Source: Mobula hypostoma
Taxonomy: Eukaryota
Length of the DNA: 64,000 bases
Reading direction: 5' to 3'
Assembly (NCBI RefSeq): GCF_963921235.1
Contig: NC_086097.1
Location: forward strand, 18,602,001-18,666,000
Shown here: positions 15,448-60,200 of the stretch, piece after piece
Layout of the letters: each line of letters opens with the position of its first letter
How positions within the stretch are numbered: the stretch's first letter is position 1
The notes under the pieces: model-generated
What the model was told of the DNA's origin: nothing
The model's database searches: none
Seen by the model: the letters and a program-made list of their open reading frames with translations, nothing else
Made by a program: the position numbers and the translations under genes

Positions 15448-16120
15448 AGGAGGAGAAAATGGCGATGCGATGCAACTCGCAGTGGCCACTCCGGTGGTGA
15501 TACCTGTAACCTGTCAAGTAGGGTGCTGTGCACAATCCTGATTTGATGGAGATAGACGTGAGCGCATGGAGGAACATCTGGTGAAACTTCTGAAATGCCC
15601 GCTTCGCTGCCGCTGCTACTGTGTGATCCAGAATCTCTGGAGGGGAAGGCCCCGAGTCCTCGGCTTTGCTTGTTGCTCGGCAGCTGGGCGGGATCGAAGC
15701 GCTCGACAGAGGATGGCGCTCAGTGCTCTGTGTCGGAGGGCTGGTTGGAGGCTCGAAGTTTTCGGACGGACTCAGAGCCCGCTGCGGTTGGGTGCTTCCA
15801 ATGGTGCAGCATCGGCAAGTTTGCGGCGCTTGGAGGTTCATGGCAGGGAGAGTTTCTCCCTTCTATCATCTGTGTGAGATGATGAGGCTATCGGAACTTT
15901 GAGACTTTTTTTTTACCGTGCCCATGGTCTGCTCTTTATCAAATTACGGTATTGCTTTGCACTGTTGTAACTATATGTTATAATTATGTGGTTTTGTCAG
16001 TTTTAGTCTTGGTTTGTCTTGTGTTTCTGTGATATCACTCTGGAGGAACATTGTATCATTTTTAATGCATGCATTTCTAAATGACAATAAACGAGAACTG
16101 AGTGTCCTCATAATCATCAT
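15448..16120 (+). mobile_element. Non-autonomous retroposon family A, apparently full length (~670 bp)
   Basis: Starts 'aggaggagaaaatggcg'; CpG-rich body; ends 'gacaataaacgagaactgagtgtcctcataatcatc'. Confidence 0.82.
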
Positions 16121-25080: not shown

Positions 25081-25586
25081 AAATAACTCCAGGACAAGGA
25101 GGCTGTTTGCACGTTATTGAAGTTAACATAAACCATGTAAAATTGAGCTGATGTAGCACATATGCCAACAGCAATGATGGCAGGAAGCTGAATTTCAAGG
25201 CAAACATATGGTTAAGTGGTCAGTGCATTGACATGGGAATAGATCTGGAAGCAGATTGCTCAGTTATGGGCAATCTGCTGTCTGATCGGAGAGAGTTCAG
25301 CCAAGTATCACTATCAGAGAGTGCAGACAACTTTCAAACATGTTCAGTCACTTAATGAAGACTTTAGGCCAAACAGAATGATTGGGGCATCACAACCATC
25401 AGCAAAAAGAATTACCAGGGGGTTTGGCTGATTACATGAATCGATCGGCACTGATGGACAAAGATTGGCTCTGCAACCAAAACCGGATTGGAAAAAAGTG
25501 TTCAGCCTGACGGCTTCAAAATCAGGTTTAGTCAGTTATTGGGAAATTATCCAAGCATATTTCGGATTTCAACTCAGGTTATTATA

Positions 25587-26276
25587 TTAGATTTTAGATT
25601 AGAGTATGAGGACGCTCAGGCCTCGTTTATTGTCATTTAGAAATGCATGCACTAAAAAATGATACGCTGTTCCTCCAGTATGATATCTCAGAAACACAAG
25701 ACAGACCAAGACTAAAACGGACAAAAACCACATAATTATTACATATAGTTACAACAGTGCAAAGCAATACCATAATTTGATAAGAGCAGATCATGGGCAC
25801 AGTAAAAAAAAAGTCTCAAAGTCCCGATAGCCCCAACATCTCACGCAGATGATAGAAGGGAGAAACTCTCCCTGCCATGAGCTTCCAGCGCCCCAAACTT
25901 GCCGATGCAGCATCCTGGAAGCACCTGACCACAGTCGGACTCTGAGTCCATCCGAAAACTTCGAGCCTCCGACCAGCCCTCCGACACTGAGCACTGAGCA
26001 CCATCTCTGCCGAGCACTTCGACCCCGCCCCGACCGCCGAGCAACAGGCAAAGCCGAGGATTCGGGGCCTTCCCCTCTGGAGATTTCGGATCACACAGTA
26101 GCAAGGGCAGCGAAACAGGCATTTCAGAAGTTTCACCAGATGTTCCTCCGTGCTTCTTCACGTCTGTCTCTATCAAATCAGGATTGTGTACGGCATCCTA
26201 ATTGTCAGATAACAGATACTCATCACCGGAGAGGCTGCACGCGCTATGTTGTGCCGCCATTTTCTCGTCCTCCTCC
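25587..26276 (-). mobile_element. Non-autonomous retroposon family A, full-length copy
   Basis: The antisense starts 'ggaggaggacgagaaaatggcgg' and ends with the stem-loop and (ATCTA)n-type tail; collinear with 15448-16120. Confidence 0.82.
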
Positions 26277-36120: not shown

Positions 36121-39100
36121 GTTGATTCCCATCCATAGATGCTGTCTGACCTGCTGAGCTCCTCCAGCGCATTGTGTGTTTTGTTCTGGCTCTCCTGCAT
36201 CTGCAGTACCTCTTCTGTCTACGCTTCCCTTCAACCATTCAGTTCTTGAACCAACCTGCAGAACTCTAATCGCTGTCTCAATACAGCAACACTCTGACCA
36301 CTTTGCATTGCAAAAATTGTGTCCAATTGATGCTTGATTCAACGAATGCTGCTTATCTGAAGTTATGTGCCTGTGATTCTGCTGTAAGTAAGATTCTCAT
36401 TGCACCTGTGCATACAGGTACTTATGCATATAACTTTGACCTTGGCTTTGACAAAGGAAGGTATAACTGCAACATTTAAGTAGTATCTAAACCAGCACTT
36501 GAATCGCTTTTTCTTCCCAGACCCAAAAGAAGGGTCTAAGCCTAAAACTTCATTTCCATGGATGCTGCCTGACCCGCATTTTGTGTGTGTTGCCACAGAA
36601 GGGTACAGACAAGGTTCTGGTAAATGGGACGAGTACAGATGGTCAGCATGGACATGATGGGCTAAAGGCTCTGATTATTCTATGACAAAGTGAGGCTTTG
36701 ATATTTCCCAGTTGTAGGTAAGAGCTGATTGAAAGGTGATTCAGCCATATAGTGTTATGAGGGAGTCTGCTCACTGTCATAGTCGGAATAGTCACTTTCT
36801 GAAAGGCACAAGTTAGATCTTGCTGGCCCCTTTATGATGTTAAATCCCCTAGGTTTTCCTCGGCCACTTATGGCTCTCTCTCTAACCTGCTCACAAAAAT
36901 GGGCCTGGGTGAGCTGGATTTTGAAGCTATGAGGTTCCAGATTTAGAAGGGGATACAATGAAAAATGGATCAACTGACAGAAGCCTGAACCTTTGAAGGG
37001 ATTATTGGGTTGGACAAGCTGAACTATCAGACTGGAGCAGCAGCTACCTACGCAATGTTCGTTTGATTGAGAAGCTCACAAAGATTAAGGGTTGGAAATG
37101 CGCAGCGACAAAGAAAATCTGTTTTTGAAGGGACTATTTCCGCTATAAACTGAGCTGATTTTTAATAGCTACTCTCTGATTTTACTTTGCTTAGTCAGGT
37201 GGCTGTGATGTGTGTGAGACGTGACTAACATGCAATTGCCAGGTTTAACGTCCTCCAAGTTAAGCTCCCAGGAAGCCGCACTTAACTCTGGCTCTCCTGT
37301 GTCCAAAGCCATGTGCCAGCCGTGGCACTGTGAAAGCATTCTCATCTTTGAGCCACCTCTGGACCCCCTTGGGGAATCTTGTAAACAGATCCTGGCATGC
37401 TTTTGTAGACCAGAAGGAATGCTGTAGTGCTAAAAGTGATATCATTTTGATGAAGTTTTAACACGAGGTCCTGTTGATCATCAGTCAAAATTAGCAACAA
37501 CCAGACATTTTTGAGGAAACTCAGTGCAGATTGTAACTTTACAATAGCTTAATGTGAAGGTGCTAAAAGAATACAGGAGGAGAAGTAGGACTAGGTCACT
37601 TAGCCCTTTCAAGCCTGCCCTACCATTCAATGACTAACTAATACTTACCTCGGCTTTTCATCTGTTGCTGGAATCAAACTCATTTTCCATTTTCCATTCC
37701 AGCTCCTCTCTTATTCCTTCTCTTCTCACCTGTCTATCAGCTTCCTCTGCTGCCCTCCCTTTCTCCTATGGTCCACTCTCCTCTCCTATCAGGTTCCTTC
37801 TTCTACAGCCCTTTACCTTTTCCACCTGTCATCTCCAACTTCTCACTTCTTCCTTCCCACCCACCAACCTACCTTCCCCCTCACCTATTACCTGCCGACT
37901 TGTACTAATTTCCCTCCCTCCACCTTCTTGTTCTGGCTTCTTTCGCTTTCCTTTCCAGTCGTGATAAAGGGTCTCAGCCCGAAGCTTCGACTGTTTATCC
38001 CTCTCTGGAGATGCTGCTGAGTCCCTCCAGTGTTTTGTGTGTGTAACTATCCATCTGTGCTAGTTCCCCATAACCATCTATTCCTCGATCTTATACATGT
38101 TGCTCTGTGAACATACGCTATGTTGGTGCTGAGCTGCTCAGCAGAATTCTTGCTGCTTTGGTTTGATCCAAATGAAGCATTTCACTCTGTTTCGATGTAC
38201 ATGAAGTCAGAAATGCAAATTTCTTTATTCATCTATCTCCAGCCGAAATAAATTTAGGAGGACAGGCCCTCAAAGCTGTGATACCACCTAGCAGGCGTCG
38301 GGTGTCGAAGGCAGGCATCAGATGATCTTGGTGGGCTGGGGGTCTCGACTCTATACATGCATATTCTGCGTCCTTGTGTTTTTCTGATATTCTATATGGA
38401 TTTGTTGACTTGTATATGCAAGAACTGGGCCTCAGGCCATGGTGCCATGGGTGGTGGGGGCAGGGCGTCAGAACTCTATTATTCTATGATTGTGATCTTG
38501 TGCATGACTGTTGGTAATTTGTTTTAGCACCTTGTCCCGAGAGTAACACTATCTTGTTTGACTGTGTTCATGAGTATTCATGTGTGGTTGACTGAGAATT
38601 AAACTTGAATTGAACTGAATTGAGTTTCATTAAATGGTCCGGTCTGCACTCCACACCGTGCCCCCCACCCCAGAGTTAGAGATTCCCAGAGGCTCAGTAC
38701 CATTTGAGAGAAGTTTCTACACACTTCAGTTTTAAAATAACCAGCCCCTTATTTTGTAGTTATGCCTCATTGTTTATGACTTTCCACTTGCGAACGTATC
38801 TCAATATCTACCCTCTCAAGCTCCCTTGCAATCTTATATATTATTTACCTCATATATACATACATACCTTGTATATTGATACATACATATCTTAGTGAAA
38901 TTAAACCTGATTCAGATTCAGATTCAGATTCTCCTGAGCTCCAACATTCACAAACTGTCTAGCTCCTCTTGATAGGGCAACTCTCTCATCCTAACAATTA
39001 GCCTGTTAACAACACACATTAAACTTGCTGGTGAACGCAGCAGGCCAGGCAGCATCTCTAGGAAGACATCTCTAGGAATTAGCCTGTTAATCTGCTTTGG

Positions 39101-40187
39101 GCGGCCTCCAATGACATTACATCCTTTTCTTTGGAAAAAGGAACTAAACTACTCACTGTTCTCCAGCTGAGGCCTCACAAACACCTTGTACAATTGTAAC
39201 AACACCTCTCTTGTTCTTGACTCCAACCCCAAAATTCCATCTGTCTTCTTAACTATCTGTTGGATTGGTTGCTAAAGTTTTGTGATTTTGTGACACTGGA
39301 GCACATAGGTCCCTCTGAACTTCAATCATTTGCATTCTCTCTTCCTTTAAAAAGTAATCCATTTTTCAATTCTTCTTAACATATTGCATAATCTCACATT
39401 TCCTCACATCTAACTCCATTTGCCAGATTTTCACCCATTACTCATTCTATCTATATGCAACTGCAGAATTGCGATGGCCCTGTTAAATAATGCCCTTACA
39501 TCTATTTTCTTATCATTGGCAAACTTAAAAACCTTACATTTTGTTCCATCCTCCTCCAGGGCAGTAATGTAAGCAGAAAACAGTTGAAGGCTAGGAACCA
39601 TCCATGGGGTATTCCACTAGATACATCCCTCCAGCCTGAAAAAGACCAATAAATTCCAGCTCTTTGTTCCCTACTTGACAGCCAGCTTTCAATCCATGCT
39701 AACACACTTCTTCCCATACTTTTGGCTTTTAATTCATGCTCAAGGTTGTATGGGATATCTTGTCAAATGCCTTTTGGAGGTCTAGATATATTGCACCTAT
39801 CAATTCTCCCTTTCACATCCTCAAAGAATTTAAGCAAATTTTTCAAGCGTGATTTAGCTTTCATAAAACCATTTTGAGTAGGTTTGATTAAATTAGACTT
39901 TCCTAAATGAATAGTTATTTGCTCTTTGATTATTGTCTCTAGCGTTTTGTGAATAATAAATGGTAAATAAACTGGCCTACGGTTCCCTGCCTTCTGTCTT
40001 CCTCTATGTTTTGAACAGGGGTTTAAAGATTAACTTTATTTGTCACATGTACAACAAAACATACAGTCAGATGCATCACTTGTATCAAATCAAATCTGCA
40101 AGGATTGTGCTGGGGAGCTTGCAGTTGTCGCCATGCATCCAGCACCAACAGACATAGCATGTCCACAGCTCACCAACCCTAACTGTA

Positions 40188-41116
40188 CGAGGGCTGATTG
40201 ATAAGTTTGTGGCCTAAGGGAGAAGGAGTCAATTTTAGAAAACCTAGCACATTTATTTTTCACCCATAGTCCCCTCGTACATTTGCACACTTAGTCCAGC
40301 GGTCGTGGAGCATACGGATCCCTTCTTTGTAGAAGTCGGCATCTTGGAGCTCCAGCAAGTGGTCCACAGCAGGGGTGATTGATAAGTTTGTGGCCTAAGG
40401 TAGAAACATAGAAACATAGAAAATAGGTGCAGGAGTAGGCCATTCGGCCCTTCGAGACTGCACCGCCATTTATTATGATCATGGCTGGTCATCCAACTCA
40501 GAACCCCGCCCCAGCCTTCCCTCCATACCCCCTGACCCCTGTAGCCACAAGGGCCATATCTAACTCCCTCTTAAACACAGCCAATGAACTGGCCTCAACA
40601 GTTTGCTGTGGCAGAGAATTCCACAGATTCACCACTCTCTGTGTGAAGAAGTTTTTCCTAATCTCGGTCCTAAAAGGCTTCCCCTCTATCCTCAACCTGT
40701 GGCCCCTCGTTCTGGACTTCCCCAACATCGGGAACAATCTTCCTGCATCTAGCCTGTCCAATCCCTTTAGGATCTTATACGTTTCAATCAGATCCCCCCT
40801 CAATCTTCTAAAGGAGATGAGTTATACAGCTCTCATTACATGCACGTGCAGTTCAACTCTTTGCGTGATTATGCAGAAAGTTTGAAGTTAACATCTCCTT
40901 CTACCTTAGGCCATGAACTTATCAATCACCCCTGCTGTGTTCCATTTTCTGGAGCTCCAAGATGCCGACTTCTACAAAGAAGGGATCCGTATGCTCCACG
41001 ACCGCTGGACTAAGTGTGCAAATGTACGAGGGGACAATGGGTGAAAAATAAATGTGCTAGGTTTTCTAAAATTGACTCCTTCTCCCTTAGGCCACAAACT
41101 TATCAATCAGCCCTCG
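40188..41116. mobile_element. Palindromic mariner-derived MITE at the palindrome centre
   Basis: Outer TIR 'cgagggctgattgataagtttgtggcctaagg' after TA (40186-40187); inner TIRs at 40371-40405 and 40899-40933; both arms carry a mariner C-terminus 'FYKEGIRMLHDRWTKCANVRGD'. Confidence 0.88.
40401..40812 (-). mobile_element. Young CR1 3' end inserted in the MITE
   Basis: Open 101-aa ORF 'MRGDLIETYKILKGLDRLDAGRLFPMLGKSRTRGHRLRIEG'; tail shared with about 45720-45800; the MITE resumes 'ggagatga' near 40813. Confidence 0.93.
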
Positions 41117-43510
41117 TACAGTTAGGGTTGGTGAGCTGTGGACATGCTATGTCTGTTGGTGCTGGATGCATGGCGACAACTGCAAGCTCCCCAGCACAAT
41201 CCTTGCAGATTCGATTTGATACAAGTGATGCATCTGACTGTATGTTTTGATGTACATGTGACAAATAAAGTTAATCTTTAAACCCCTGTTCAAAACATAG
41301 AGGAAAACAGAAGGCAGGGAACTGTAGGCCAGTTTATTTACCATTTATTATTCACAAAACGCTAGAGACAATAATCAAAGAGCAAATAACTATCCATTTA
41401 GGAAAGTCTAATTTAATCAAACCTACTCAAAATGGTTTTATGAAAGCTAAATCACGCTTGAAAAACTTGCTTAAATTCTTTGAGGATGTGAAAGGGAGAA
41501 TTGATAGGTGCAATATATTTAGACCTCCAAAAGGCATTTGACAAGATGTCCCATAGAACCTTGAGCATGAATTAAAAGCCAAAAGTATAGGAAGAAGTGT
41601 GTTAGCATGGATTGAAAGCTGGCTATCAAGTAGGGAACAAAGAGCTGGAATGAATTGGTCTTTTTCAGGCTGGAGGGATGTATCTAGTGGAATACCCCAT
41701 GGATGGTTCTTAGCCTTCAACTGTTTTCTGCTTACATTACTGCCCTGGAGGAGGATGGAACAAAATGTAAGGTTTTTAAGTTTGCCAATGATAAGAAAAT
41801 AGATGTAAGGGCATTATTTAACAGGGCCATCGCAATTCTGCAGTTGCATATAGATGATTGAGTAATGGGTGAAAATCTGGCAAATGGAGTTAGATGTGAG
41901 GAAATGTGAGATTATGCAATATGTTAAGAAGAATTGAAAAATGGATTACTTTTTAAAGGAAGAGAGAATGCAAATAATTGAAGTTCAGAGGGACCTATGT
42001 GCTCCAGTGTCACAAAATCACAAAAATTTAGCAGCCAATCCAACAGATAGTTAAGAAGACAGATGGAATTTTGGGGTTGGAGTCAAGAACAAGAGAGGTG
42101 TTGTTACAATTGTACAAGGTGTTTGTGAGGCCTCAACTGGAGAACAGTGAGCAGTTTAGTTCCTTTTTCCAAAGAAAAGGATGTAATGTCATTGGAGGCC
42201 GCCCAAAGCAGATTAACAGGCTAATTCCTAGAGATGTCTTCCTAGAGATGCTGCCTGGCCTGCTGCGTTCACCAGCAAGTTTAATGTGTGTTGTTAACAG
42301 GCTAATTGTTAGGATGAGAGAGTTGCCCTATCAAGAGGAGCTAGACAGTTTGTGAATGTTGGAGCTCAGGAGAATCTGAATCTGAATCTGAATCAGGTTT
42401 AATTTCACTAAGATATGTATGTATCAATATACAAGGTATGTATGTATATATGAGGTAAATAATATATAAGATTGCAAGGGAGCTTGAGAGGGTAGATATT
42501 GAGATACGTTCGCAAGTGGAAAGTCATAAACAATGAGGCATAACTACAAAATAAGGGGCTGGTTATTTTAAAACTGAGGTGTGTAGAAACTTCTCTCAAA
42601 TGGTACTGAGCCTCTGGGAATCTCTAACTCTGGGGTGGGGGGCACGGTGTGGAGTGCAGACCGGACCATTTAATGAAACTCAATTCAGTTCAATTCAAGT
42701 TTAATTCTCAGTCAACCACACATGAATACTCATGAACACAGTCAAACAAGATAGTGTTACTCTCGGGACAAGGTGCTAAAACAAATTACCAACAGTCATG
42801 CACAAGATCACAATCATAGAATAATAGAGTTCTGACGCCCTGCCCCCACCACCCATGGCACCATGGCCTGAGGCCCAGTTCTTGCATATACAAGTCAACA
42901 AATCCATATAGAATATCAGAAAAACACAAGGACGCAGAATATGCATGTATAGAGTCGAGACCCCAGCCCACCAAGATCATCTGATGCCTGCCTTCGACAC
43001 CCGACGCCCGCTAGGTGGTATCACAGCTTTGAGGGCCTGTCCTCCTAAATTTATTTCGGCTGGAGATAGATGAATAAAGAAATTTGCATTTCTGACTTCA
43101 TGTACATCGAAACAGAGTGAAATGCTTCATTTGGGTCAAACCAAAGCAGCAAGAATTCTGCTGAGCAGCTCACAAATGTTGGCATGCTTTCGGCATCAAC
43201 ATAGCGTATGTTCACAGAGCAACATGTATAAGATCGAGGAATAGATGGTTATGGGGAACTAGCACAGATGGATAGTTACACACACAAAACACTGGAGGGA
43301 CTCAGCAGCATCTCCGGAGAGGGATAAACAGTCGAAGCTTCGGGCTGAGACCCTTTATCACGACTGGAAAGGAAAGCGAAAGAAGCCAGAACAAGAAGGT
43401 GGAGGGAGGGAAATTAGTACAAGTCAGCAAGTAATAGGTGAGGGGGAAGGTAGGTTGGTGGGTGGGAAGGAAGAAGTGAGAAGTTGGAGATGACAGGTGG
43501 AAAAGGTAAA

Positions 43511-43532
43511 CAAACTTATCAATCACCCCTCG
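43511..43532. mobile_element. Orphan right TIR of the mariner MITE
   Basis: 'caaacttatcaatcacccctcg', then TA (43533-43534), then the continuation of the SINE that was interrupted at 40187. Confidence 0.9.
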
Positions 43533-44107
43533 TATATCTTTGGAATGCGGGAGAAAATCGAAGCACCCTGAGGAGATAACGCATTCACAGGGAGAATGTG
43601 CAAACTCCTTTCAGACCGTGGCAGGATTTTAACCCCGATCTTACAGCTGGTACTGCACTGGCATTACACTGTTATGCTACTATTGGCTATTGCCTGCTTT
43701 CCATATTGGCTATTTCGAAATCTGAAATCAAAACAGAGTGTAGTGGTGACCTCACTTTCTTTGTCAGAATTACAAAGAAGAGATTTTAAAAAATGTAGGT
43801 TTAGAGAAGATGGTGGATGGGACAAAAGGAGTATCTGTGAACAGTTGACACGAGCATTGCCATGGAGATGGGTTGTATGAGTCTGATGTCATCCTGCATT
43901 TGATATTCACAATGTGACCTCCTCTACACTGGAGAAGCCAAACAGAGATTGGGTAATGGTTTTTCAATCATTGTCATCATCATTATGTGTCGTGTCATAT
44001 GACATGGGCAATCATGCTTTGCAAAGCACCTGCATTCAGTCTGCAGGAAGGACCCTGATGCCTGCCACTTTAATTCACCTTTCCAATTCCACTCCGATCT
44101 ACCTTCA

Positions 44108-45800
44108 TTGAGAAAAAGGACCGCAAAGGTAGTAATCTCGGGATTACTGCCTGTGCCACGCGACAGTGAGAGTAGGAATGCGATGAGGTGGAGGATAAAT
44201 GCGTGGCTGAGGGATTGGAGCAGGGGGCAGGGATTCAAGTTTTTGGATCATTGGGACCTCTTTTGGCGCAGGCGTGACCTGTACAAAAAGGACGGGTTAC
44301 ACTTGAATCCTAGGGGGACCAATATCCTGGCAGGGAGATTAGCGGGGGCTACTGAGGTGACTTTAAACTAGAATGGTTGCGGGGTGGGAATCAAATTAAA
44401 GAGGCTAGGCGTGAGGAGGTTAGTTCACAACAGAGGGATGGGAACCAGTGCAGAGAGACAGAGGGGTGTAAAGTGAGGGTAGAAGCAAAAAGTACAAAGG
44501 AGAAAAGTAAAAGTGGCAGGCCGACAAATCCAGGGCAAGCATTAAAAAGGGCCACTTTTCAACATAATTGTATAAGGGCTAAGAGAGTTGTAAAAGAGCG
44601 CCTGAAGGCTTTATGTGTCAATGCAAGGAGCATTCGTAATAAGGTGGATGAATTGAAAGTGCAGATTGTTATTAATGATTATGATATAGTTGGGATCACA
44701 GAGACATGGCTCCAGGGTGACCAGGGATGGGAGCTCAATGTTCAGGGATATTCAATATTCAGGAGGGATAGACATGAAGGAAGGGGAGGTGGGGTGGCGT
44801 TGCTGGTTAAAGAAGAGATTAACGTAATAGAAAGGAAGGACATAAGCCGGGAAGATGTGGAATCGATATGGGTAGAGCTGCGTAACACCAAGGGGCAGAA
44901 GACGCTGGTGGGAGTTGTGTACAGGCCACCTAACAGTAGTAGTGAGGTCGGAGATGGTATTAAACAGGAAATTAGAAATGTGTGCAATAAAGGAACAGCA
45001 GTTATAATGGGTGACTTCAATCTACATGTAGACTGGGTGAACCAAATTGGTAAAGGTGCTGAGGAAGAGGATATCTTGGAATGTATGCAGGATGGTTTTT
45101 TGAACGAACATGTCGAGGAACCAACTAGAGAGCAGGCTATTCTGGACTGGGTTTTGAGCAATGAGGAAGGGTTAATTAGCGATCTTGTCGTGAGAGGCCC
45201 CTTGGGTAAGAGTGACCATAATATGGTGGAATTCTTCATTAAAATGGAGAGTGACATAGTTAATTCAGAAACAAAGGTTCTGAACTTAAAGAGGGGTAAC
45301 TTTGAAGGTATGAGACGTGAATTAGCTAAGATAGACTGGCAAATGACACTTAAAGGATTGACGGTGGATATGCAATGGCAAGCATTTAAAGGTTGCATGG
45401 ATGAACTACAACAATTGTTCATCCCAGTTTGGCAAAAGAATAAATCAAGGAAGGTAGTGCACCCGTGGCTGACAAGAGAAATTAGGGATAGTATCAATTC
45501 CAAAGAAGAAGCATACAAATTAGCCAGAGAAAGTGGCTCACCTGAGGACTGGGAGAAATTCAGAGTTCAGCAGAGGAGGACAAAGGGCTTAATTAGGAAG
45601 GGGAAAAAAGATTATGAGAGAAAACTGGCAGGGAACATAAAAACGGACTGTAAAAGCTTTTATAGATATGTAAAAAGGAAAAGACTGGTAAAGACAAATG
45701 TAGGTCTTTAAATGTAGATGATAATAAATGGCGGTGCAGGCTCGAAGGGCCGAATGGCCTACTCCTGCACCTATTTTCTATGTTTCTATGTTTCTATGTT
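44108..45800 (+). mobile_element. Young internally deleted CR1: ORF1 esterase C-terminus, ORF2 endonuclease and 3' tail, with no RT
   Basis: 44108-44371 'VVISGLLPVP...INAWLRDW...FLDHWDLFW.RRDLYKKDGLHLN' (SGNH-type ORF1); ORF2 follows; jumps to the 3' UTR near 45720. Confidence 0.92.
44377..45711 (+). CDS. CR1 ORF2 N-terminal half (APE-like endonuclease), uninterrupted 444 aa, truncated before RT
   Basis: 'NARSIRNK', 'VGITETWL', 'GVVYRPP', 'IMGDFN', 'ILDWVL', 'SDHNMV'. Confidence 0.85.
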   Translation: MRGGNQIKEARREEVSSQQRDGNQCRETEGCKVRVEAKSTKEKSKSGRPTNPGQALKRATFQHNCIRAKRVVKERLKALCVNARSIRNKVDELKVQIVINDYDIVGITETWLQGDQGWELNVQGYSIFRRDRHEGRGGGVALLVKEEINVIERKDISREDVESIWVELRNTKGQKTLVGVVYRPPNSSSEVGDGIKQEIRNVCNKGTAVIMGDFNLHVDWVNQIGKGAEEEDILECMQDGFLNEHVEEPTREQAILDWVLSNEEGLISDLVVRGPLGKSDHNMVEFFIKMESDIVNSETKVLNLKRGNFEGMRRELAKIDWQMTLKGLTVDMQWQAFKGCMDELQQLFIPVWQKNKSRKVVHPWLTREIRDSINSKEEAYKLARESGSPEDWEKFRVQQRRTKGLIRKGKKDYERKLAGNIKTDCKSFYRYVKRKRLVKTNVGL

Positions 45801-58917: not shown

Positions 58918-60200
58918 TTAGACGGTGAGGAGGAGGCATACAGGAGTGAGACAGATCGGCTGGGTGAGAGCTGTAGCAACAGCAACCTGGCACTCAACAT
59001 CAGTAAGACCAAGGAATTGATTGTGGACTTCCGAAAGGGGAGACTGGAAGAACACACACACACACACACACCAGTCCTCATCGAGGGGTGATCAGTGATA
59101 AGGGGGAGCAGCTTCAAGTTCCTGGATGTAAGCATCTCTGAAGATCTATCCTGGGCCCTACATACTGATGCAATTACAAAGAATGTCAGTGGCTACATTG
59201 GATTAGAAGTATAAGATTTGAAAGGTCACTGAAGACTCTAGCAAACTTCTACAAATCTACCGTGGAGAGCTTTCTGACTGCCATCTGGTATGGAGGCACC
59301 AATGCACAGGACTGGAAAAAGCTGCCAAGGATTGCTATCTTGGCCAACTGTATCTTGATCATTAGCCTCCCCACCAATGAGGACATCTTCAAAAAGTGGT
59401 GGGTGCCTCAGGAAAGCAGCATCATCTTGAAGGGCCCTATTCATCCAAAACATGTTGTCTTCTCCTTACTACTATCAACGAGGAGGTATAGGAGCCTGAA
59501 GACAGATACATCAACGAGGAGGTATAGGAGCCTGAAGACACATACATCAACGAGGAGGTATAGGACCCTGAAGACAGATACATCAACGAGGAGGTATAGG
59601 AGCCTGAAGACACACACTCATCAACGAGGAGGTATAGGAGCCTGAAGACACACTCATCAATGAGGAGGTATAGGAGCCTGAAGACACATACATCAACGAG
59701 GAGGTATAGGAGCCTGAAGACACACACTCATCAACGAGGAGGTATAGGAGCCTGAAGACACACTCAGCAATGAGGAGGTATAGGAGCCTGAAGACACACA
59801 CTCATCAATGATGGGGTATAGGAGCCTGAAGACACACACTCATCAACGAGGAGGTATAGGAGCCTGAAGACACACACTCATCAATGAGGAGGTATAGGAG
59901 CCTGAAGACACACACTCATCAATGAGGAGGTATAGGAGCCTGAAGACACACACTCATCAACGAGGAGGTATAGGAGCCTGGACACACTCATCGTTCTAGG
60001 AACAACTTTTTCACCTCTACTATCAGATTTCTGAAATGCCCATGAACCCATGGATACTGCTTCACAATTTTTACACTATTTATCTATTTTGTTTATATAT
60101 TCTGACTGTAATATATAATAATTCAAATGCACTGTACTGCTGCAAAACAACCAATTTCATAACATACCGCATGCCAGTGATAATAAACCTGATTCAGATC
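58918..60200 (+). mobile_element. Rex/Babar C-terminus and 3' UTR containing an expanded minisatellite
   Basis: 'LALNISKTKELIVDFRKG', 'ESFLTAIWYG'; ends 'gtgataataaacctgattc'. Confidence 0.85.
59474..59992 (+). repeat. Minisatellite, 14 units of 36-38 bp
   Basis: Unit 'atcaa(c/t)gaggaggtataggagcctgaagacaca(ca)ctc' and close variants. Confidence 0.97.

Follow-up and report, generated by a model that had tools for sequence, protein, structure and literature searches.

The window analysed here, 64,000 nucleotides of Mobula hypostoma contig NC_086097.1 (positions 18,602,001 to 18,666,000), contains an interrupted palindrome built around a miniature inverted-repeat transposable element (MITE) derived from a mariner transposon. 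We think it reasonably probable that the palindrome arose by a fold-back inverted duplication inside this MITE, which is itself palindromic, with a return junction of 1-bp microhomology and later patchy gene conversion. The MITE would first have inserted at a TA of a dispersed repeat. A DNA end in its right arm may later have paired with its left arm and primed synthesis, and extension backwards through 2.4 kb of left flank would have given the inverted copy. The new end would have rejoined the chromosome within the original right terminal inverted repeat (TIR), 22 bp from its tip, by 1-bp microhomology or by end joining, and the MITE would have lost about 140 bp of its original right arm; the arms would then have undergone conversion in patches.

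Self-comparison of the window recovered a single long inverted repeat, confirming that the palindrome called in the first-pass annotation is real. Its arms lie at 37812–40405 and 40899–43510, are separated by a 493-bp spacer and are 97.9% identical over 2614 columns (34 mismatches and 3 gaps). The putative template of the duplication is the left flank (segment A, 37812–40187, plus strand), and its inverted copy (segment A′) occupies 41119–43510 on the minus strand, both delimited by self-alignment. In a global alignment, the flank part of the arms differs by 27 substitutions in 2372 bp (1.14%), 21 of which are transitions, and the MITE part by one substitution in the outer 168 bp and six in the inner 50 bp. 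There are three indels, two of 1 bp and one of 20 bp (43173–43192). The central excess of differences over the rest of the arms is significant (P=3e-5, or P=0.003 with two doublets each counted once), and since the outer arm end shows no rise (0 differences in its first 80 bp, 37812–37891), this excess is not a mere edge effect. The six mismatches previously noted at the centre stand. The accompanying description of the arms as nearly identical outward of 40950 masks a strong patchiness, with 18 differences in 41253–42265 and only 1 in 42153–43008; identity along the arms is uneven. Folding of the present element gives a long hairpin with a z-score of -28.7, which reflects the homogenised arms and not the state before the event. 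The observed/expected CpG ratio is higher in the outer arm (0.40) than in the inner arm (0.15).

The insertion is bounded by TA dinucleotides at 40186–40187 and 43533–43534. When the empty site was rebuilt in silico by joining 40187 to 43535, it aligned without a break to five other copies of the repeat in the window. The dispersed repeat is thus restored, and the two TA dinucleotides mark the insertion ends of the MITE, in agreement with the ends first proposed at 40187 and 43533. The left part of the interrupted repeat (40026–40187, including the TA) falls within segment A, and its right part, defined by the empty-site alignment, is at 43535–43650 (plus strand). The repeat had been called a short interspersed nuclear element (SINE); it is indeed a multi-copy dispersed repeat, and we refer to it as SINE-like. 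An orphan TIR end, reported earlier as 22 bp, is present at 43511–43532 and, together with its TA (43511–43534, plus strand), likely represents the original right end of the MITE.

The orphan end meets the inverted copy at junction 2 (43510–43511, no strand assigned), 22–23 bases within the TIR. One base is common to 37812 and 43510, within the limit of about 1 bp of microhomology that had been claimed for the return. The join is on the TIR's inner side and carries no TA. Transposases join TIR tips to TA targets, and an inner-TIR join without TA thus indicates that transposase did not make junction 2. Aberrant transposition, originally offered as a possible cause, does not fit a new junction that is away from the TIR tip and lacks a TA duplication.

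Among the 22 sequencing runs listed, four of an organism A share 0.76–0.78 of words with the stretch and four of an organism B share 0.41–0.45, and the shares of runs C and E–G are small. Contigs of four runs were aligned to 40760–43900, and a contig was taken as bridging a junction when it reached 31 letters on each side. Two organism B contigs pass through junction 2 with 30 letters on the left side: record 23 (43481–43614; 2 differences) and record 32 (43481–43900; 10 differences, 1 gap). In organism A, record 7 stops at 43510 and record 8 starts at 43511, as expected where the arms part, and the contigs carry the letters of both arms. All four arm contigs of organism A are deeper than the adjoining single-copy contig (22.4–29 versus 17.5), and the same holds for 7 of 10 comparisons in organism B, although depth cannot be equated with copy number. 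In organism A, the order of depths follows the prediction from shared 31-mers (1.55, 1.65 and 1.83 for the three computed). Contigs of a further organism, D, give almost no cover of 43700–43900. The right arm has a 20-bp segment at 43173–43192 that the left arm lacks, and the contigs of B and D show no gap of that size there; the left arm of organism A has likely lost it.

The MITE reads as a non-coding remnant of a mariner transposon. Its parts are a reversed mariner 3′ end (40188–40370), a forward 5′ end (40371–40891, interrupted by a fragment of a long interspersed nuclear element, LINE), a reversed 5′ end (40892–40933) and a forward 3′ end (40934–41116). The 5′ and 3′ ends of the parent were told apart with nine distant family copies from metagenome contigs. 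The left arm (40188–40370, minus strand) comprises the outer left TIR, a 3′ untranslated region (UTR) and a remnant of the transposase C-terminus, seen in translation. It is followed by the inner left TIR (40371–40405, plus strand), which corresponds to the mariner 5′ end from TIR base 3 when set against the distant family copies. Most of the spacer is a 3′-terminal LINE fragment (40406–40812, minus strand), presumably CR1/L2-like, recognised by self-comparison and by the loose ends of other LINE copies at 40812; its insertion cost the MITE no sequence. The mariner 5′ UTR resumes at 40813–40891 (plus strand), where it matches the 5′ ends of distant copies L002, L004 and L008, and is followed by the inner right TIR (40892–40933, minus strand), a fold-back of the 5′ end found at the level of the family (loose ends at 40891; records 1, 9 and 17). 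Without the LINE the element is about 530 bp long and carries the transposase C-terminus twice. Its TIRs are about 40 bp long, four within the element in addition to the orphan end.

The mariner origin claimed at the outset is borne out by the 35-residue remnant in each arm, which resembles the C-terminal end of SETMAR (E=4e-4) and, less strongly, that of Mos1. The remnant has 53 relatives, some with the mariner motif YSPDLAPSD and ending in GDYVEK; when 13 relatives were scanned against Pfam, one scored above the Transposase_1 cutoff and three matched DDE_3 below cutoff. Other copies of the MITE differ from ours by 8–13%, and their contigs (records 1, 9 and 17, from three organisms) cross both right-hand internal junctions, with about 5–7 more bases at 40891/40892 than the window copy. 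Opposite-strand joints in contigs of other copies have a short side that reaches exactly 40939, which suggests that the mirror junction on the left also exists in the family. A palindromic family, possibly with four TIRs, is therefore likely, and a rough estimate from contig depth seems to put it at thousands of copies. Relative to the 5′ UTR, the internal junction is covered at a depth of 0.09–0.10 in A and B and of 0.006 in D, a weak hint that the palindromic form spread after D split off. The internal junctions in other copies led us to reject the construction of a four-TIR element at this locus by abortive gap repair; together with the four differences in 40940–40948, they also disfavour a three-TIR ancestor with the inner TIR as its right end.

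A scan for the TIR motif found nine loci in metagenome contigs, all distant (about 70–85% identity beyond the TIR) and mostly short, and none in viral or prokaryotic contigs. None of the nine has a flanking inverted duplication, the feature that the first-pass annotation had proposed to look for in other copies. Some show rearrangements of other kinds. L006 (664–1005), a short derivative of the same mariner that arose by deletion, is complete, and its ends differ at the variable TIR position. L002 (811–1300) and L007 (2609–3041) contain internally inverted element pieces, which suggests that this mariner family often rearranges by inversion. The family fold-back at 40891–40892 has an apparent short microhomology between the two 5′ UTR parts, and the window copy lacks about five bases there.

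To locate the change of ancestry in the right arm, we compared both arms with family letters, defined from contigs aligned at 85% likeness (40 of the 175 rows). At 40955, 41019, 41027 and 41084, the arms agree on a letter that is missing from 97.8–99.2% of the family depth, and they have an extra base near 41040–41041 in common. At 40940, 40941 and 40945, only the left arm agrees with the family; the arms still differ at 40948, and at 41036 the right arm alone departs from the family. From the shared and the right-only letters, the arms have a recent ancestry in common outward of 40955 but not inward of 40946. Their inner 50 bp differ by 12%, as do unrelated family copies (8–14%; records 1, 2 and 18), and their outer 168 bp by 0.6%. 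The right-arm repeat thus appears to be chimeric at 40946–40955, a pattern that conversion could also yield. We take this interval, to which no strand is assigned, as junction 1, a putative switch point or conversion boundary. The part inward of it (40934–40948, plus strand) has not been homogenised with the left arm, and the part outward (40955–41118, plus strand), which ends in the 41116 TIR and a copied TA, would be derived from the left arm or converted with it. A boundary near 40950 had been proposed from the mismatches, and the four shared non-family letters are stronger markers for it. Immediately beside junction 1, four arm differences fall within 9 bp (40940–40948); they could be errors generated by a switch or ordinary old divergence.

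The letters of the TIR variants read as first described, but the use made of them could not be upheld. GAGGGCTG had been regarded as private to the left and 41116 TIRs. The position equivalent to 41110 is C in four of the nine distant copies (two of these with degraded ends), G in four and T in one; in L006 the two ends disagree, with C at the 3′ end and G at the 5′ end. Among family 3′ ends, some agree better with the G form of the orphan (joints from 41083 to 43510–43513), and 41110 is absent from the 40 rows. The TG/CA difference at 40389–90/40914–15 was also tried as a marker and is weak, with CA at six of nine loci and TG, TA and CG at one each, the pattern permitting these alone.

Organism B provides a reference for the history of the arms. 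If junction 2 is older than the A/B split, arms without conversion should be at least as divergent as A and B are. In five matched intervals totalling 2150 positions, 48 differ between B and the right arm and 25 between the two arms (P=0.009). The test excluded X6 record 29 (overlapping, depth 3; 3/128 differences) and every X5 record (same sample), and ignored gaps. In the outer four intervals the figures are 26/1137 and 7/1137 (P=0.001, rising to 0.004 and 0.019 once repeat-rich intervals are removed), and in the inner interval 22/1013 and 18/1013 (P=0.63). The divergence of B is even along the arm (P=0.88). Differences between the arms cluster (Kolmogorov–Smirnov P=0.015), and the emptiest 850 bp gives P=0.004 for a window picked afterwards. 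At 43092 (non-CpG) and 43002 (CpG), B and D agree against both arms of A. Junction 2 predates the ~2% split between A and B while the outer arms differ by 0.6%, which makes later conversion likely: we are fairly confident that the arms exchanged sequence in patches after the event. The identity of the arms, once read as a pure record of the original copying, is thus likely not such a record. Within the arm, 42996–43057 contains several CpG sites where organism D differs from A.

The fold-back reading specifies the product more closely than the route to it. The claim that synthesis ran from the right arm to the left arm first is not supported, since the reverse order of switches (a stall 22 bp into the hairpin, a microhomology jump and a return by homology) gives the same product. 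A stalled fork and a double-strand break followed by fold-back likewise predict the same product. The segment between the duplicates, comprising the spacer (40406–40898) and the unconverted inner arm, is copy-neutral. Because at least four private changes in 168 bp preceded the coalescence of the arms, the duplication seems to have taken place long after insertion of the MITE. Several observations count against the reading as a whole. The four-TIR structure of the family comes from joint lengths, and no single piece holds a whole copy. The two organism B contigs stop one side of junction 2 at 30 letters under a rule of 31, and both are from one sample; among the 32 of 166,454 pieces displayed, none of those from organism A bridges 43510/43511. 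Conversion may itself have made the shared letters, and junction 1 would then mark the edge of a converted tract instead of the place where synthesis first switched. As to conversion, the clustering test gives no significant result for the densest 500 bp (P=0.078), and 43092 is the only non-CpG site at which B equals D and differs from both A arms, a pattern that parallel mutation could produce. In addition, B contigs collapse both arms, so that their differences from the right arm come from unphased arms; the division into inner and outer intervals, although it coincides with contig ends, was made in hindsight; and the 20-bp and two 1-bp indels persist between the arms.

Four other explanations have to be set against the fold-back with later conversion. 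An assembly artefact, produced by a fold-back chimeric read or by haplotypes joined head to head, would agree with the lack of a bridging or spanning contig among those displayed for organism A. It is nevertheless very unlikely, as the arms are set apart by 27 substitutions, most of them transitions, the same junction occurs in contigs of a second organism (about 2% diverged), and arm contigs are deeper than their single-copy neighbours in both organisms (A 4/4, B 7/10). Nor do we give much credence to a fold-back shortly before the A/B split without any later conversion, the similarity of the outer arms then being due to chance or local rate variation. The inner interval would fit (18 versus 22 differences), the three indels persist and the subdivision into intervals was post hoc, but B is evenly diverged along the arm, so that the outer part is not slow-mutating, and the deficit of differences has P=0.001–0.02 in the outer part, by the intervals kept, and P=0.009 over all intervals.

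The remaining two explanations concern the trigger and the number of steps. Abortive gap repair of DNA transposons is a known process, and a gap left by excision or single-end cleavage could have been repaired from the sister chromatid, the nascent strand folding back to give the same geometry; the right end would have been copied for 22 bp and the left end through most of the element before fold-back. The position of junction 2 inside the TIR, 22–23 bp from the tip, the intact outer TA–TIR ends and the resemblance of the family fold-back at 40891 to a template switch at short microhomology all speak for such a trigger. It is still quite unlikely: the four or more private changes before coalescence date the event to long after insertion, unless they were reset by conversion, an excision footprint is lacking, and a literature search found nothing on this combination. 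Alternatively, sister-chromatid arm exchange or alternative transposition could have produced a longer inverted structure or a second MITE, from which later breakage or deletion left junction 2; the 22-bp remnant would stem from that breakage or deletion and the similarity of the arms from conversion. The likely conversion does blur the original record, long-spacer repeats favour inter-molecular annealing in yeast according to PMC6103520, and secondary erosion of inverted triplications is proposed as a general route in passages of PMC10766186. We regard this course of events as unlikely too, because it requires extra breaks that end exactly within a TIR, and because alternative transposition, as outlined in part of 10.1101/2020.01.07.897926, predicts a transposon tip and a target-site duplication at the new junction, which are absent here.

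No MITE-primed flanking inverted duplication was found in a literature search of titles and abstract openings, with thin coverage of subscription journals. Made1, a palindromic MITE, derives from Hsmar1. Like our element it is non-autonomous, hairpin-forming and mariner-related, as stated in part of PMC1784062; the element described here differs in its length of about 530 bp without the LINE, its four TIRs and its two copies of the transposase C-terminus. The maize Ac/Ds system resembles the locus in placing a DNA transposon beside an inverted host duplication, through alternative transposition and composite insertions, but in the account sampled from 10.1101/2020.01.07.897926 the new junction consists of a transposon tip and a target-site duplication, and here it is on the inner TIR side with 1-bp microhomology.

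Portions of PMC6902434 and PMC10766186 describe human rearrangements (duplication–normal–inverted duplication, DUP-NML-INV/DUP, and inverted duplication–deletion, INV-DUP-DEL) in which copy number runs from duplicated through neutral to deleted, with one junction in inverted repeats and the other with little homology. The palindrome is a small, old variant of this class. The PLP1 and F8 cases, as presented in those portions (PMC6902434, PMC10766186), share with it a chimeric repeat, a low-homology second junction, a copy-neutral spacer and a small deletion. In contrast to these inverted copy-number variants, which are de novo disease alleles, the duplication here measures 2.4 kb, is old and is common to two organisms, and a single transposon remnant provides both inverted repeats as its arms. 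In yeast, fold-back has been demonstrated at inverted repeats close to breaks (PMC6103520, in part). Nearby inverted repeats reverse synthesis in that system, as in origin-dependent inverted-repeat amplification (ODIRA) and as proposed here, but the products of those systems are inverted dimers or triplications, and ours is a bounded interstitial duplication healed inside a repeat. Finally, the primate X palindromes resemble our arms in that divergence within a species is below divergence between species, and the same comparison was used there to detect conversion (PMC8327919, in part). Their arms are 8–140 kb long, more than 99% alike and mostly gene-bearing, as given in sections of PMC8327919, and those described here are 2.6 kb long, 97.9% alike and partly homogenised, with no gene found.

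There is no sign of function in the palindrome: Rfam gave no match in 36500–44500, and no RNA run contains the stretch, the search having been aimed at DNA runs. The window around it is rich in LINE-like reading frames. At 44356–45800, a 451-aa LINE-like open frame is directly followed by a tail repeat, and 45717–45796 matches the LINE piece at the centre of the MITE at 97.5%; this is possibly an internally deleted young LINE copy. At 59474–59992, a 38-nt unit is repeated in tandem about 14 times, with a higher-order period of 110 nt, and three dispersed-repeat copies of about 650 bp, 82–87% alike and in both orientations, lie at 1212–1839, 15448–16115 and 25581–26271.

Rearrangements of this class have been described in human disease alleles and in yeast. 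What is new is that one MITE supplies both repeats, that the product is common to two organisms and that arms this short have likely been partly converted. A family of many copies offers a natural series in which to ask whether palindromic MITEs raise the local rate of inverted duplication and where the return junctions fall, and, as a second question, whether conversion acts on arms of only 2.6 kb without genes to protect. We put forward, as a speculation with rather low odds of being right, that a four-TIR mariner MITE may serve as a self-contained fold-back primer that seeds kilobase palindromes at many of its copies, with the return junction at the base of the hairpin or at a transposase-bound TIR. 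If so, repeated fold-back seeding would leave orphan TIR ends, and gene-free palindromes would persist across species under conversion.

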